DNA of 64,000 bases from Alphaproteobacteria bacterium (GCA_017471445.1 JAFUTJ010000018.1:10871-74870); one strand, 5' to 3'. Shown: positions 12,799 through 40,415, counted from the first letter of the stretch. Numbers and translations are program-made. Notes: generated from the letters alone by a model not told the origin.

Positions 12799-12875
12799 TG
12801 GTCGGGGCGACAGGAATCGAACCTGCGACCCCTTGCACCCCATGCAAGTACTCTACCAGGCTGAGCTACGCCCCG
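12799..12875 (-). tRNA. tRNA-Pro (anticodon GGG)
   Basis: Hand-folded 77-nt cloverleaf: CGGGGCG acceptor, anticodon loop AUGGGGU, GGTTCGATTCC T-arm, encoded CCA. Confidence 0.9.
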
Positions 12876-13514: not shown

Positions 13515-14330
13515 TTAATTGGTTGGCACCAATTTCCCGCCCTGCCCCGGTTTTGCACTAATCCAACACGTTGCGCCATTACGTGGTACGGCCATGGCGT
13601 ATTTTGTGTGCTTTTCGGCATATATGTTTATTCCGTTCATTGCGGTGTCACCAATCCGGCACAGTGGTAAACACCGGTCATCGGATGTGTGACCGAATCC
13701 ATCGTCACATTCCCACGGACAATTTCCAACATCCGGTGTGCCCGCACCGGTATAGTGTGCATTTGCCGGGGCATTTGTGCATGGTTTTAGTTCAGAATAT
13801 TCACATATTGTCCTTGTGGCTATGCTTGCGGGATTACCATGAAAACAATCGGCCAGGTAATAACCTTTTGATACCCCAGTATATACGCTATATACATCGG
13901 TTGTACCACGATAGTAACTGTTCCATTCAACGCCGTCCCTAATCGTAGTGTAATAATGTGATTTAAGTATTCTATAGGTATTACCATCATTTAATGGCAT
14001 TTGTACAAAAACATTTACATAACACTCTTTCACTTTTGTTGCGTCACTCACACCACGTCCCGTATATGTTCCGGCGCCTGCCACTCCTACAGACACTGCC
14101 TCTGGATAAATAGTCGCCCAGTCGACATCGTTTGCGGGACACTTAATACGCATATTATCCCCAGGGCAATAATGACCGTTACCACATACAACGCAAACAC
14201 CCGTGCCGTCGTCATAATACCCGGCCTTGCATGTTGCGGCATGGGCCGTGCCGACACCGCCAACCGCCGCCAGTACACAAATCGCCATACCACGAATTTT
14301 ATGTTTATTATAACATATAAATCTTGTCAT
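13515..14330 (-). CDS. secreted cysteine-rich repeat protein
   Basis: Signal peptide ending in AHA. CKAGYYDDGTGVCVVCGNGHYCPG furin/GCC2-GCC3-like Cys spacing. SD GGGGGA lies 9 nt before ATG 14330. Confidence 0.65.
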   Translation of the reverse strand: MTRFICYNKHKIRGMAICVLAAVGGVGTAHAATCKAGYYDDGTGVCVVCGNGHYCPGDNMRIKCPANDVDWATIYPEAVSVGVAGAGTYTGRGVSDATKVKECYVNVFVQMPLNDGNTYRILKSHYYTTIRDGVEWNSYYRGTTDVYSVYTGVSKGYYLADCFHGNPASIATRTICEYSELKPCTNAPANAHYTGAGTPDVGNCPWECDDGFGHTSDDRCLPLCRIGDTAMNGINIYAEKHTKYAMAVPRNGATCWISAKPGQGGKLVPTN

Positions 14331-14608
14331 GATTTCATTCCCCCATTTGGTTTATTAAATTAAAAACGCCGCAACAGAAATCGCGGTCGGGGTGTTCAAC
14401 AATCATGTACATCTATGATTCCGGCGGCCTTGGTGGATTTTAAGCCATTTATAACCGTCGGCACCCCAACAATGGTTGGGGAATACATAAATGCGATGCA
14501 CGGCAAATGCCGACACCGGATGTACATGGGCCGTTGAAAGCCCCCTGAACCCAACTGATGCCGGGTTCATGCATAGATAATTTTAATGAAACGGTAAAAT
14601 AATTACAA
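14331..14608 (-). promoter_or_regulatory. promoter plus ~243-nt structured leader (copy B of a repeated leader)
   Basis: TTGTAA (14608-14603), 17-nt spacer, TAAAAT (14585-14580). Segments 1 CCCCAAC, 2 GUUGGGGUG, 3 CACCCCGAC, then the terminator. Shares sequence blocks with 40095-40415. Confidence 0.6.
14362..14386 (-). terminator. leader (attenuator) terminator of copy B
   Basis: CCGCGA-UUUCUG-UUGCGG followed by CGUUUUU, about 30 nt before the SD of the 14330 gene. Confidence 0.55.
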
Positions 14609-14632
14609 TATAAAATTATTGATATGCGCATT

Positions 14633-14657
14633 AAAAAACGCGGCATCGCCGCGTTTT
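14633..14657 (-). terminator. intrinsic terminator after rplI
   Basis: CGCGGC-N3-GCCGCG hairpin directly after the rplI TAA, followed by U6. Confidence 0.75.
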
Positions 14658-15263
14658 TTATTCTGCCGTGGCGGCATCCGCCGATTCCGACGGTTCTGAC
14701 TTTACATCAGATTCTGTTTTTTCTGATTCTGTTTCCGATTCAGCGGCCGGTTCTTCGTCAACCTTCTTGGTACCGAACGTCAAAACCTTGCCCGCAACCA
14801 ATGCGTCAATTTCATCTTGGGTTTGTGCAACATAAACACGCACCGGAACAATAACATCGGCATGCAATGCGATTTTTGTATCAAACGCACCAACCGATTT
14901 AATCGGGGCCCCCAACATAACCTGGGCGGATTCAACAGATACATTTGCAACATCTTTTAACATGCGCGCGATATCACGCGTAGACACCGAACCATACAAT
15001 TGACCAGTATCACCCGCCTGGCGTATCATGTGCAATTTTGCGTTACGCACCGCGTCAACATTCGCCTCGGCGGATTTACGTGCGGCTTCGTGGCGGGCCG
15101 TTAATTCTGCCTTTTGGGCTTCAAATAATGCGACGTTTTCACGTGTGTAACGCATCGCCTTGCCATTTGGCAATAAATAGTTACGTGCGAAACCAGTCTT
15201 TACTTCAACCGTATCGCCGATATTGCCCAGTTTTGTAATTTTTTCTGTTAAAATAACTTTCAT
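14658..15263 (-). CDS. rplI: 50S ribosomal protein L9 with acidic C-terminal extension
   Basis: MKVILTEKITKLGNIGDTVEVKTGFARNYLLPNGKA. About 50 extra acidic residues at the C-terminus. Confidence 0.9.
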   Translation of the reverse strand: MKVILTEKITKLGNIGDTVEVKTGFARNYLLPNGKAMRYTRENVALFEAQKAELTARHEAARKSAEANVDAVRNAKLHMIRQAGDTGQLYGSVSTRDIARMLKDVANVSVESAQVMLGAPIKSVGAFDTKIALHADVIVPVRVYVAQTQDEIDALVAGKVLTFGTKKVDEEPAAESETESEKTESDVKSEPSESADAATAE

Positions 15264-15294
15264 AATCTGTCCTTTCTTTATTAAAAGTTAGGGA

Positions 15295-15522
15295 TTAACC
15301 CAAATTGTTACGAACGAACGGCAACAGCCCCAAGTGACGTGCGCGTTTGATGGCCGTGGCCAATGCGCGTTGGTCTTTCTGGGAAACGCCGCTGATGCGG
15401 GACGGAACAATCTTGCCACGTTCGGTGATATAGTGTCCCAATAATTTCGCATCTTTGTAGTCAATAACCTTGCCCTTTAACGGGTTTGATTTTTTACGAT
15501 AAATTGCTGCACGAACTGCCAT
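15295..15522 (-). CDS. rpsR: 30S ribosomal protein S18
   Basis: [38 protein letters not shown]. Start overlaps the rpsF stop (TAATG). Confidence 0.9.
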
Positions 15523-26067: not shown

Positions 26068-26880
26068 TTATTGGCCACTTGTATCTGTGACACCTGCCGC
26101 CTGCAATATCGCTTCACGAAGGTAGTAATTAACCCTAATTTTTTCGGCACACATCGACGCACACGAACATGCGCAATCAGTGGTATTCCAACCACGCTCC
26201 TCTAAATATACCCATTTAGATTCTGGAAAACTACGCGGTCCCATCCCATTATCCGCCTCGTCCAACCGACACCAACAATATTGCCCTAATATTTCGTCTT
26301 TATTTAATTCCCTTCCCTCCCTGGTTGCTAAGTTTTCTCTACCTGAATCTTTGGCGCAACTGGCAACGCCGGCAAGATACCCCGGATACGGGAACGAGAC
26401 ATACCAGCCTTGAATTTTGCTATAATCACCAACATCCCTGCCACACACATCTCTATCGCCTACGCCTAGCCACTGCAGCGTTCTATCATCTGAATCTATT
26501 ATGTAAGGTATACCAAAATCATCACCGACGGGGCTGACATCATCATCACTTTCACCCCCCTGGGACGAACCGCCACCACTGCTGCTGCCAGAACTGGTGC
26601 CGGTTAATGTTATATCGGTTGTATATGAAAATACGTATGATCGATTTGGGTTAAACGTTGTGCCATTGTATGTCCACGCGGTTATGCCGCCGCATGATGT
26701 GGACGGGGGCGTTGTAAAATTTGTGCCATATTCCACCGAAACCGCCTCGGGTGCACTTGCCCTATTTGCGCACACGTACGTAATTTTATATTTTGTGCCA
26801 TTACATAATGTAAATGCACACGCCGCACCGGCAAAACCAACACCACAAATTATTCCCCAGAAACACTTTGACAACGCCAT
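26068..26880 (-). CDS. secreted protein: beta-repeat-like N-module, Ser/Gly linker, Cys-rich C-domain
   Basis: Signal peptide. KYKITYVC...YGTNFTT...AWTYNGTTF resembles Listeria-Bacteroides (Flg_new) repeats and the N-module of 39072-40094. Confidence 0.6.
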   Translation of the reverse strand: MALSKCFWGIICGVGFAGAACAFTLCNGTKYKITYVCANRASAPEAVSVEYGTNFTTPPSTSCGGITAWTYNGTTFNPNRSYVFSYTTDITLTGTSSGSSSGGGSSQGGESDDDVSPVGDDFGIPYIIDSDDRTLQWLGVGDRDVCGRDVGDYSKIQGWYVSFPYPGYLAGVASCAKDSGRENLATREGRELNKDEILGQYCWCRLDEADNGMGPRSFPESKWVYLEERGWNTTDCACSCASMCAEKIRVNYYLREAILQAAGVTDTSGQ

Positions 26881-26978: not shown

Positions 26979-27055
26979 GCGAGCGTAGCTCAGTTGGCTA
27001 GAGCGCAACCTTGCCAAGGTTGAGGTCGAGGGTTCGAGCCCCTTTGCTCGCACCA
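26979..27055 (+). tRNA. tRNA-Gly (anticodon GCC)
   Basis: Hand-folded 77-nt cloverleaf: GCGAGCG acceptor, anticodon loop UUGCCAA, GAGGG-TTCGAGC-CCCTT T-arm, encoded CCA. Confidence 0.9.
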
Positions 27056-27440: not shown

Positions 27441-27903
27441 AGCGTTAAATAAACGGCGGTTGGGGCAATTATTGGATGAGTTGCAACCAAACGACATTTT
27501 AATTGCTACCGAAATATCAAGATTGGGCAGGTCTTTATTGGAAGTTATGCATATTTTAGAAAATTGTTTAAATAAAAATTGTCAGGTCTGGACAATAAAA
27601 GAAAATTATCGCCTGGGCAACGATATTCAATCAAAAGTTATGGCATTCGCATTCGGTTTATCCGCAGAAATAGAACGCAATTTAATATCGCAACGCACCA
27701 AGGCTTCCTTGGAAAATGTCAAATCAAAAGGCAAAAGATTGGGGCGTCCTTTTTCGGCGCAATCAAGAAAACTGAAATTATACAAAAACACAAAAAAAGT
27801 TAAAGAATTATTGGATATGGGTTTAACAATATACCGAATTGTAAAAATCATGCAGGTAAAACAAACAACCGTATCAAGATTCATAAATCGTATGGGTTGG
27901 TAA
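27424..27903 (+). pseudogene. serine recombinase (resolvase) remnant lacking the catalytic-Ser N-terminus
   Basis: Clearly similar by eye (long identical runs such as AFAFGLSAEIERNLISQRTK) to residues ~42-190 of the full-length resolvase at 52541-53266. Homology starts at ~27436 (ALNKRRLGQLL). No YIRVS motif. Confidence 0.7.
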
Positions 27904-39044: not shown

Positions 39045-39073
39045 ACATCACGATTGTTCAGTGATGTTTTTTT
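39045..39073 (+). terminator. terminator after tRNA-Val
   Basis: ACATCAC-N9-GTGATGT followed by T7. Confidence 0.7.
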
Positions 39074-40094
39074 ATTCCCGCCCATAAATAAATTCACCGG
39101 TGCCCAAATTTGGGTAAAATTTTTGTTCAACCATGTCCCACATACCATTAGACGGCACAACATAATCACCAATACGCATACCACGCGGAATTGGCACATA
39201 TCGGCGAATAACAGATTGGTCATCACTAAAATTCGCATAATAGATTTTTGCCATACTATATTCCGTTGGATAACCGTTATTGCTATGTGCTGCGAATAAA
39301 TATACAGATACATTGGCTTTAATAGATTCTAAACCCAGCATCCCCGATGCGATTCCTGATATAGAAAATTTTTTGGTATTCATAAAATTTACATCACAAA
39401 TATGTCGTTCTGAATCAGATGCTTTTTCATGCCAGTCACAACCCAATGAATTACGGTGCGCAACACAAAATGGTGCACGTGCTATTGCACCCTGATGCGC
39501 CAACAAAAAATTGGGATTCCACACACCAAACACTGCGGCATCCGCTTTCCGTGTAATGTTTTCTGGGGTAAATGCAAAATCAATTTGTACACCGGTATTA
39601 CTGATTGGTATTATGTTGGTATCAATATATTGCGTTCCGGTGCTTTCCAAATACACATATGGGTCGGCATTAATCAGTTTACCGCCCGCAATTGTGTATA
39701 ACGAACTGTAATCTGCGTGTAATACAATGTCGTGCGTATATGCGTACGGAATTGTTGTGTTTGATGTAATAATTGTGTCACTGTCATCAACACGCCATGC
39801 GGGCGCATTGTTACAACCAACACCGGTTGTAAAGTTATTACCATACGCGGTGCTTTGTTGTGTTGGCGCATTCCCACCCGCCGGACAATCGTATGTTACC
39901 CTATATTGTTTCGGTATACAGAACTTTACATTTTCTGGTAATTCGGCATTTGCGAAATTGCCAACACAAAGGCCAAAACATAAAACACAAATGGCATTGA
40001 ATCCCACACGGCACATGGTTTCATGCGTATCTGTAACATTCTTGCCACCACACCTTGTTACCCTGCCCTTTGTTTCACATATACCATGTAACAT
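39072..40094 (-). CDS. secreted protein: beta-repeat-like N-module plus unknown C-domain
   Basis: Start set to ATG 40094, which has SD AAGGAGAG (the ORF-track ATG 40121 lies in the terminator U-tract). Signal-like CVLCFGLCVGNFANA. QYRVTYDC...YGNNFTT...AW module. Confidence 0.6.
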   Translation of the reverse strand: MLHGICETKGRVTRCGGKNVTDTHETMCRVGFNAICVLCFGLCVGNFANAELPENVKFCIPKQYRVTYDCPAGGNAPTQQSTAYGNNFTTGVGCNNAPAWRVDDSDTIITSNTTIPYAYTHDIVLHADYSSLYTIAGGKLINADPYVYLESTGTQYIDTNIIPISNTGVQIDFAFTPENITRKADAAVFGVWNPNFLLAHQGAIARAPFCVAHRNSLGCDWHEKASDSERHICDVNFMNTKKFSISGIASGMLGLESIKANVSVYLFAAHSNNGYPTEYSMAKIYYANFSDDQSVIRRYVPIPRGMRIGDYVVPSNGMWDMVEQKFYPNLGTGEFIYGRE

Positions 40095-40415
40095 AATATG
40101 CCTCTCCTTTTTCTTAATCATGAATAAAAAAACACCGCCGGTGGGAACAACGGCGGTCGGGGATTAAGAAAATCATAACAAACAATGATCCCGTGACCTT
40201 TGGACAGGTGCCCTGTTATATAATCACAGCCCCCCGACCGTCAAAAAAAATGTTGGTCGGGCGATAAAATACATGGCGCACATGCGCCGACGTATTCTTC
40301 GTACATCGGATTACGGTATGATCACACCGGTTTGTTATGGGCTTTCTTACGACCCCGAACCCGTCATCCACACGGATTCATTACGAATACTACAAAAAAG
40401 CACAAATAAATACAA
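40095..40415 (-). promoter_or_regulatory. promoter plus ~285-nt structured leader (copy A of a repeated leader)
   Basis: TTGTAT (40415-40410), 17-nt spacer, TAGTAT (40392-40387). Segments 1 CCCGACC, 2 GGUCGGGG, 3 CCCCGACC, 4 terminator. Shares blocks with 14331-14608. Confidence 0.6.
40126..40157 (-). terminator. leader (attenuator) terminator of copy A
   Basis: ACCGCCG-N10-CGGCGGT followed by GU7, about 30 nt upstream of ATG 40094. Confidence 0.65.

Follow-up and report, generated by a model that had tools for sequence, protein, structure and literature searches.

Positions 14331–14608 on the minus strand of a 64,000-nucleotide (nt) stretch of alphaproteobacterial DNA (GCA_017471445.1, JAFUTJ010000018.1:10871-74870; the whole stretch is called the window below) hold leader B, a promoter-proximal leader of ~240 nt in front of a gene for a cysteine-rich protein. 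We find that leader B, or copy B, truly belongs, together with a second leader of the window, copy A, to a family of 5′ leader RNAs that had not been described before and that occurs in many copies in Candidatus Enterousia. Two mutually exclusive folds are kept by covariation in this family: State I, in which a long-range clamp and a hairpin of segments 1 and 2 form together with a terminator, and State II, in which segment 2 pairs with segment 3 and closes a three-way junction. The fold-level evidence for a switch is strong, and we consider it probable that the leader works as a factor-dependent, co-transcriptional transcription attenuator that is bistable around its terminator. The RNA family is new, while the kind of control, attenuation, is a known one.

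A many-copy family of leader RNAs

An earlier note on the window, made from the sequence alone, had described A and B as two copies of one leader, with three segments whose 1:2 and 2:3 pairings alternate upstream of a terminator. Direct reading of 13600–15400 bears out all of its coordinates for leader B on the minus strand, including the promoter hexamers just past the rplI terminator, the intrinsic terminator 3′ of segment 3, and a 41-codon open reading frame (ORF) starting at AUG 14574; this promoter and this terminator were also called, independently of that reading, by a consensus scanner. Copy A also reads as the note gave it, namely CCCGACC, GGUCGGGG and CCCCGACC. What the note missed are the dominant feature of the leader, a long-range clamp, and a 5′ hairpin, P0 (14568–14547). 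The elements of leader B and of its downstream gene, all on the minus strand, are as follows, with the basis of each assignment.

14331–14608 (−): leader B, one copy of the family, promoter-proximal, ~240-nt leader RNA
14608–14603 and 14585–14580 (−): promoter, −35 TTGTAA, 17-nt spacer, −10 TAAAAT; direct reading and scanner
14547–14568 (−): P0, 5′-terminal hairpin (GAACCCGGC / GUUGGGUUC); per-sequence fold
14544–14541, 14538–14531 and 14528–14519 (−): 5′ strands of the clamp, H0 GGGG, H1 UUCAACGG and H2 CAUGUACAUC; folds and duplex energies
14543–14539 with 14532–14528 (−): Px, local hairpin of State II, GGGCU / GGCCC; folds
14494–14518 (−): Pa, variable internal hairpin; per-sequence folds
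14481–14475 (−): segment 1, CCCCAAC, partner of segment 2 in State I; direct reading, per-sequence fold and three-way covariation
14470–14462 (−): segment 2, GUUGGGGUG, partner of segment 1 in State I and of segment 3 (helix P1) in State II; direct reading and R2 model
14421–14461 (−): P2, hairpin whose internal loop holds a conserved AUA (UUAUAAAU ... CCAAGG); R2 model alignment
14420–14401 (−): P3, hairpin AAUCAU-N8-AUGAUU of State II; direct reading, fold and covariation
14413–14404, 14402–14395 and 14392–14389 (−): 3′ strands of the clamp, H2′ GAUGUACAUG, H1′ UUGUUGAA and H0′ CCCC; folds and duplex energies
14394–14386 (−): segment 3, CACCCCGAC, 3′ strand of P1; direct reading and R2 model
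14362–14388 (−): intrinsic terminator and U-tract CGUUUUU; scanner and family overlap analysis
14344–14339 and 14330–14328 (−): Shine–Dalgarno (SD) sequence GGGGGA and start codon ATG of the putatively regulated gene; direct reading
13515–14330 (−): that gene, with a product of 271 aa that has 16 Cys (5.9%) and an N-terminus resembling a signal peptide

The corresponding elements of copy A, which was assigned to the same family from its folds and a score of 77.8 bits with the R2 model, are also on the minus strand.

40094–40410 (−): copy A, leader ~40097–40410
40379–40357 (−): P0
40356–40330 (−): 5′ strands of the clamp
40261–40255 (−): segment 1
40239–40232 (−): segment 2
40183–40159 (−): 3′ strands of the clamp
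40162–40155 (−): segment 3
40157–40126 (−): terminator and U-tract
40094 (−): ATG

The membership of copy B was assessed with R2, a covariance model of the 3′ domains of 11 type-1 homologues, none of them from the window. Searched against the window with filters off, it returns copy A at 77.8 bits (E = 2.5e-17) and copy B at 60.7 bits (E = 4e-13); the third-best match is a tRNA-Pro at 18.5 bits, so that A and B are the only two strong matches. The resemblance of the two leaders, for which the earlier note had proposed a structure-aware check, is thus far above chance, and copy B stands as a true second copy of a structured leader. The minimum free energy (MFE) fold of copy B moreover contains every element of State I in order, that is P0, H0/H1/H2, segment 1:segment 2, P2 and the terminator.

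The window comes from a metagenome-assembled genome of the ruminant gut, which similarity of rplI places in Candidatus Enterousia, an uncultured gut lineage of the order Rs-D84 with genomes of ~0.75–1.0 Mb (PMC12306168). There the picture of two copies does not hold, and we instead find dozens per genome across the genus. In related metagenome-assembled genomes, paralogues of the gene behind copy A carry homologous leaders (L008, L009 and L010), and blastn found more copies upstream of other genes. A family survey was made over 80 rplI neighbourhoods from distinct species, in which blastn yielded 41 instances, frequently with two or three of them inside 12 kb, and covariance models yielded at least 43 copies in ~1.0 Mb of Candidatus Enterousia DNA, or about one per 25 kb. 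A scan of metagenome contigs with a DNA pattern for the 5′ motif gave four matches, all in GC-rich coding sequence and attributable to chance. A protein-pattern scan for genome contigs with the A-type protein family found no relatives; it was the rplI scan that reached the genus.

The copies fall into two subtypes. A and B belong to type 1, whose P2 combines an AUAnAAC...AAAG internal loop with an inner stem and whose P3 reads GUCAU...AUGAU; in type 2 the P2 loop is GAAUAYAYUGAAUAA. A covariance model of full-length type-2 leaders, R1, barely picks up type-1 copies. As plain MAFFT alignment of full-length leaders scrambles their variable middle, the clamp of type 1 was read from per-sequence folds and from the energies of cognate and non-cognate duplexes. 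The hairpin Pa is found in all copies, with variable sequence and length. We also noted two decayed copies, L017:10373-10489 (−) and L043:6692-6921, in which the junction is recognisable and a proper terminator is missing; the latter is also without an SD-preceded ORF within 200 nt.

State I, a long-range clamp

A simple attenuator of 1:2, 2:3 and terminator pairings, as the earlier note had drawn it, is incomplete, in that a second and larger competitor is present, the copy-specific clamp H0/H1/H2. The MFE folds of copies B and A both contain this long-range helix (z-scores −3.5 and −5.2). Its 5′ side, located 3′ of P0, has the form GGGG-N-8 nt-CC-10 nt; within the AAUCAU hairpin it pairs with the loop and the 3′ arm, and beyond it with the linker and with the CCCC in segment 3. 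The P3 loop and 3′ arm thus double as the 3′ strand of H2, and the 5′ part of segment 3 pairs with H0 while its 3′ end is common to the terminator stem. The clamp sequences are wholly different between the copies, with UAAGAAAG / UUUUCUUA and CAUAACAAAC / GUUUGUUAUG in copy A against UUCAACGG / UUGUUGAA and CAUGUACAUC / GAUGUACAUG in copy B.

The State I structure (P0, H0/H1/H2, segment 1:segment 2, P2 and terminator) was tested on a 25-sequence alignment from R1. Of its cells, 92.9% are paired, compared with 37–47% when partners are slid by 1–3 columns, 38 of 49 pairs have changed on both sides, and the covariation score is 0.564 against <0.1 for the slid controls; none of 500 shuffles reaches any observed value. 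P0 is 97.8% paired in this type-2 alignment, and all eight of its pairs have changed on both sides. For type 1, 14 of 14 sequences fold individually by MFE into the State I architecture, with an essentially hypervariable H2.

When the 5′ strand of each leader was duplexed with the 3′ strand of every leader, cognate clamps averaged −20.5 kcal/mol and non-cognate ones −9.7 kcal/mol, and a strand's own partner ranked first in 32 of 39 cases. For copy B the cognate duplex reaches −25.8 kcal/mol, compared with −15.0 for the best non-cognate. G-U pairs are frequent and some are invariant (25/25 at one H0 pair), which shows that the structure is an RNA of this strand.

State II, a three-way junction closed by segments 2 and 3

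In copy B, segment 2 (GUUGGGGUG) and segment 3 (CACCCCGAC) can form 9 bp including one G-U, within the 8–10 bp typical of the family. The earlier proposal that segment 1:segment 2 and segment 2:segment 3 are alternative pairings held by compensatory change is borne out by a three-way covariation. Its companion claim, that segment 3 stays fixed, does not extend across the family, where segment 3 co-varies with both segments 1 and 2:

Type 1: segment 1 CCCGACC, segment 2 GGUCGGGG, segment 3 CCCCGACC
Type 2a: segment 1 CUCCAACC, segment 2 GGUUGGAGG, segment 3 CCUCCAACC
Type 2b: segment 1 CUCCUGA, segment 2 UCAGGAGG, segment 3 CCUCCUGACC
L088: segment 1 CUCCUGUC, segment 2 GGGCAGGAG, segment 3 CUCCUGCC

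Since all three segments change jointly from one subgroup to another, segment 2 can pair with either neighbour.

Together with P2 and P3, the segment 2:segment 3 helix (P1) makes up a three-way junction, of which it is the closing helix. On a 33-sequence R2 alignment that includes both types, State II has 93.8% of its cells paired, compared with 30–52% in slid controls, and 26 of its 30 pairs have changed on both sides. P1 itself is 97.6% paired with six of nine pairs covarying, all seven P2 pairs covary, and P3 covaries as well. P1 is 99.4% paired even on the R1 alignment, whose fitting was to State I and took no account of State II. One P3 pair of that alignment, columns 232:253, is A-U in 13 rows and U-A in eight; as State I leaves column 253 unpaired in a bulge, it cannot account for this covariation. 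The strand of H0 and H1 that State II would set free can be taken up by Px (GGG[N]-8 nt-[N′]CCC), for which the support is weaker.

P1 and H0/H1/H2 are mutually exclusive. Because the linker between H1′ and segment 3 is only 2 nt, we infer that a pseudoknot between P1 and the clamp is sterically excluded.

Coupling to the terminator and the proposed switch

The terminator of leader B has the core CCGCGA-N6-UUGCGG (14386–14362, including CGUUUUU) with a stem CCGCGAU / GUUGCGG and a CG:CG extension across a bulged A; it lies ~30 nt 5′ of the start codon. The scanner match covers 14386–14369 and CGTTTTTAAT, a GC-rich stem-loop followed by a U-tract as in Rho-independent terminators. Across the family the median stem is 7 bp, a U-rich tail is found in 31 of 33 copies, and all five modelled pairs covary. 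The three bottom pairs, ACC:GGU, right before the U-tract, use the last nucleotides of segment 3 in 29 of 33 copies, so that one ACC is contested by two GGU sequences, one at the start of segment 2 and one at the end of the terminator. In copy B the overlap of segment 3 with the terminator had been given as 1 nt and the competition therefore as less clear than in copy A; the overlap comes to ~3 nt once the bulged CG:CG extension is counted, and to the extent that this extension is counted the shared ACC:GGU largely removes the difficulty. When P1 is formed, the hairpin that remains is shorter and displaced by 3–4 nt from the U-tract. A hairpin shortened and displaced in this way should strongly reduce intrinsic termination.

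The segment 1:segment 2 hairpin and the clamp make State I the thermodynamically dominant fold by computed energies, with −105.9 versus −86.1 kcal/mol for States I and II in copy A, and −88.3 versus −73.3 kcal/mol in copy B. Since State I has the lower energy and its competitor strands emerge from the polymerase earlier, OFF would be the default and ON would need help. We suggest that in State I the helices H0, H1 and H2 would clamp the P3 region and the CCCC of segment 3 while segment 1 holds segment 2, so that the full terminator stem could form and transcription would end at the U-tract. In State II, segment 2 would pair with segment 3, closing the junction with P2 and P3 and leaving the freed 5′ strand to Px; P1 would thereby take the ACC of the terminator base, the terminator would fall short of the U-tract, and RNA polymerase would read into the gene. 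Given the energetic advantage of State I, State II would have to be captured during transcription by a trans-acting factor, most likely a small ligand or a protein that reads the three-way junction, which resembles that of the small RNA (sRNA) sRNA-Xcc1, and the AUA-containing P2 loop. Both the ON/OFF assignment and the co-transcriptional decision are drawn from the modelled folds. In this way, the leader would probably switch genes for secreted Cys-rich proteins on or off in response to a signal.

Several points weigh against a factor-dependent attenuator. State I is strongly favoured, by 15–20 kcal/mol. The overlap of P1 with the terminator is only 3–4 nt, and a shortened hairpin is still possible in State II, which makes antitermination plausible, not proven. 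The only unpaired bases conserved at >90% across both types are the AUA of the P2 loop and an AA before segment 3, so that, together with the GGU/ACC pair, few positions are shared and there are almost no conserved joining nucleotides, unlike in most ligand pockets. Finally, both covariation alignments were fitted to their own models.

Alternative explanations

The 1:2, 2:3 and terminator pairings follow a logic like that of classical attenuators, and in copy B the 41-codon ORF from AUG 14574 spans the clamp strands, segment 1 and segment 2, as ribosome-mediated, trp-type attenuation would have it, with translation of a leader peptide across segment 1 freeing segment 2 for segment 3. An SD-preceded start with an ORF reading through segment 1 is, however, found in none of 37 leaders; any ATG-initiated ORF crosses segment 1 in only 18 of the 37, and five type-2 copies entirely lack an ORF there. 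Neither the start position nor the frame, length or peptide is conserved, and H1 and H2 are free to change on both strands, which is incompatible with coding constraint. The earlier view that the reading frames are not conserved peptides is thus upheld. In the lack of any conserved SD, start, frame or peptide we see reason to regard the ORF of copy B as accidental and to reject ribosome-mediated attenuation, which is very improbable. A different objection is that no ligand is needed, the leader being an intrinsic kinetic or physical switch that follows transcription speed, nucleoside triphosphates, pausing factors, temperature or ions, or State II being a mere folding intermediate. The helices of State II are local and short-range and would form first in transcription, H2 nucleates at the P3 loop, conservation beyond the helices extends to few nucleotides, and the energy gap in favour of State I is large. 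Yet P1 must displace segment 1 and so is not simply the first helix formed, the selected 8–10 bp complementarity of segments 2 and 3 and the exact ACC:GGU overlap argue for a functional end state, and the conserved AUA loop, common to sRNA-Xcc1, looks like a recognition site. We consider a switch of this kind unlikely.

The leader could also be a constitutive structured 5′ untranslated region, or a stable sRNA of ~200–250 nt that acts in trans or serves as an RNase III or stability element, the gene being expressed by leaky read-through. A 5′–3′ panhandle is possible in some type-1 copies, and the H1 and H2 duplex is, we presume, long enough for an RNase III substrate. A ~22-bp clamp and a terminator fit a stable RNA, and the nearest Rfam family, sRNA-Xcc1, has been described as trans-acting and as multi-copy in Xylella (PMC2996969; PMC12189769). 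A conserved trans-target seed is nevertheless missing, since each copy has its own, hypervariable sequences in the clamp and in the loop of P3; the copies sit before ORFs (37/43) with promoter-like boxes of their own (33/39), and a single stable fold does not explain the covariation specific to State II. We rate this explanation as a little less likely again than a ligand-free switch. The many dispersed copies, the sub-threshold matches to an integron-associated Rfam family, the mosaic downstream genes and the 98%-identical 3′ ends of three leaders (D, E and F, below) could instead suggest a repeat that works as DNA, be it a mobile element, a recombination site or an attC-like site. Against this, the G-U pairs would be C-A mismatches on the opposite strand, the orientation to the gene is fixed with promoter, terminator and SD in proper order, and no terminal repeats or transposase were noted beside the copies; a DNA-level repeat is scarcely credible. 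The factor-dependent attenuator is therefore the option that we favor.

Relation to known RNA families

At gathering score, Rfam finds only four tRNAs in the whole window, and neither at this score nor at permissive E-values do the leaders match a riboswitch, T-box or protein-binding leader family. Below its gathering score of 53, RF02221 (sRNA-Xcc1) matches copy A at 37.1 bits (40147–40239) and all three type-1 copies in L080 at 33.8, 30.3 and 27.9 bits. A permissive search of copy B (E up to 10) gave terminator-like noise only, with no RF02221 match. Four of the five type-1 copies tested match RF02221 and no other family, over exactly the segment 2–segment 3 domain. By the Rfam criterion the leaders are not sRNA-Xcc1 members, though the resemblance is specific.

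sRNA-Xcc1 is an 88-nt sRNA described as trans-acting (PMC2996969). In integron cassettes of Xanthomonas it precedes symE and is co-oriented with it (bioRxiv 10.1101/2025.06.18.660453), and in Xylella it forms multi-copy arrays with ~382 bp spacing (PMC12189769). With the Enterousia leaders it shares a three-way junction closed by a G-rich/C-rich helix (GGCCGGGGGG / CCCCCGGCC compared with GGUCGGGGGG / CCCCGACC), a first hairpin bearing AUACAA in its internal loop as well as a 3′ AA, a second hairpin and then a U-rich joining strand, as well as a multi-copy occurrence just upstream of, and co-oriented with, small genes (symE in Xanthomonas). The RF02221 architecture, a 9-bp closing helix followed by the AUACAA hairpin 1 and hairpin 2, is recovered in alignments to the family consensus, and its helices covary in the Enterousia family. 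There are also differences. The sRNA-Xcc1 transcript starts at P1, whereas the Enterousia junction lies 100–130 nt inside a longer leader, with two competitor elements on its 5′ side and, on its 3′ side, a terminator that shares 3 nt; the Enterousia host is alphaproteobacterial, and no integron context was noted. sRNA-Xcc1 might also act in cis.

Like classical terminator/antiterminator/anti-antiterminator leaders (trp-type, PyrR, T-box and riboswitch platforms), the Enterousia leaders have exclusive helices to decide a 5′-leader terminator, with segment 1 in the anti-antiterminator role and segment 2:segment 3 in the antiterminator role. They differ from these in having no leader peptide or Rfam match, in having two upstream competitors (segment 1 and a copy-specific clamp of 20–25 nt) instead of one, in a putative sensor domain that is downstream of its competitors, in an antiterminator/terminator overlap of only 3–4 nt, and in a copy number that is exceptionally high for a genome of ~0.9 Mb. 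The cyclic di-GMP-I (GEMM) element is a riboswitch with a large regulon, present in many copies upstream of secreted or surface protein genes of unknown function. The Enterousia leaders are similarly many per genome and precede such secreted or surface protein genes, but they show no sequence or structure match to it (no Rfam hit) and their conserved core is much smaller. They do have what is expected of a riboswitch in one respect, a covariation-supported domain coupled to an exclusive terminator.

Three further candidates were discarded. The acceptor stem and flanks of tRNA-Pro(GGG), 12799–12875 (−), mimic P1 of type-1 leaders (GUCGGGGCG ... CGCCCCGACC), which is probably a coincidence; tRNA sensing of the T-box kind was rejected, as a conserved UGGN is missing, the type-2 leaders are not compatible with it and Rfam gives no T-box match. 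The segment 1/segment 2 sequences of copy B, CCCCAAC / GUUGGGG, recall an attC or integron site, but other copies do not fit RYYYAAC / GTTRRRY, and the G-U pairs point to RNA. Several type-1 copies, L008:3129-3365, L080:6697-6954 and L080:9460-9714 (−), have the P0 loop ACAGGGAUGU, a hairpin with GGA in its loop that to our mind recalls CsrA-type sites; neither copy B nor type 2 has this motif. In leaders C, L080c and L036, both P0 arms are able to pair with both terminator arms, which would give a 5′–3′ panhandle.

Implications

Tentatively, and with clearly less confidence than we place in attenuation as such, we propose that the junction, with P1, P2, P3 and the AUA loop, could be a new riboswitch-class aptamer or a new target of an antiterminator protein. 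Through an upstream "double clamp" platform with copy-private helices it would coordinate dozens of secreted Cys-rich genes in a symbiont-like genome of ~0.9 Mb, and sRNA-Xcc1 of Xanthomonas and Xylella would represent stand-alone or cis versions of this sensor located before symE, and would not be ordinary trans-acting sRNAs.

With about one leader per 25 kb, the family may govern a sizeable share of the transcription units of Enterousia. The set of genes so regulated would consist of secreted, Cys-rich and fast-evolving proteins, the likeliest mediators of contact with host or partner cells, and the leaders thus offer a handle on the "interaction regulon" of a bacterium that is not yet culturable. 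Two conformations that are each backed by covariation are rare and clean comparative evidence for a switch, and they open the possibility of re-reading the widely annotated sRNA-Xcc1 as a cis-regulatory sensor. Identification of the trigger would show which gut signal these bacteria monitor.

Downstream genes and genomic context

In 33 of 39 copies a −10-like box precedes P0 at a constant distance, and 19 also have a −35-like hexamer; these promoter-like hexamers lie upstream of P0, 100–130 nt before the junction. Judging from these boxes, each leader appears to be its own transcription unit that starts at P0. Within 200 nt downstream, 37 of 43 copies have an SD-preceded ORF, and most of these ORFs encode proteins with signal-peptide-like N-termini and 5–11% Cys that belong to several unrelated families. 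About five leaders, L019:10276-10421 (−), L020:2795-2960, L023:9839-10019, L031:11317-11499 and L062:6863-7015 (−), precede small XRE-type helix-turn-helix genes, which may be regulators within the same regulon.

The 271-aa protein behind leader B has no Pfam family above threshold. It had been called unrelated to the protein behind copy A, and in direct comparison this stands (pairwise E = 0.11, not significant); the two are nonetheless linked through mosaic relatives. One of these, L008:3403-4170, is encoded after leader C and shares 42% identity with the B protein (E = 2e-53); leader C itself is similar to leader A, with 70% identity. Another, P0015, shares 34% identity with the B protein (E = 2e-23) and carries the N-terminal module of the A protein. 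These crossed relationships indicate that the genes are mosaic and that leaders and genes have been shuffled. The mosaic proteins (13515–14330 (−), 39072–40094 (−), L008:3403-4170 and P0015) are built from two modules in differing combinations, a near-invariant one at the N-terminus, ELPENVKFCIPKQY...WRVDDSDTIIT, and a Cys module at the C-terminus, CTNAPANAHYTG.GTPDVGNCPWECD.GF. A third, distant paralogue with the N-terminal module, at 26068–26880 (−) in the window, is without a leader; it adjoins a tRNA gene, 26979–27052 (+), and an ORF that looks resolvase-like, 27460–27903 (+), and its neighbourhood may be an integrated element.

In several Enterousia species a leader lies directly 3′ of rplI, as in L080:6697-6954, L088:6731-6903, L087:6779-6878, L029:6687-6894 and the window (14331–14608). 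As the leaders at this position are of different subtypes and precede different downstream genes, it seems likely to be a recurrent site of insertion or turnover. Leaders D, E and F differ strongly in their switch helices, whereas their final 50 nt (L008:9954-10003, L009:9954-10003 and L010:9953-10003) are 98% identical; this common 3′ end is a U-tract:A-tract hairpin (UUUUUUAUUAGAAAAAAUAAA) with the SD, and suggests that the paralogues have recently undergone gene conversion at their 5′ ends.

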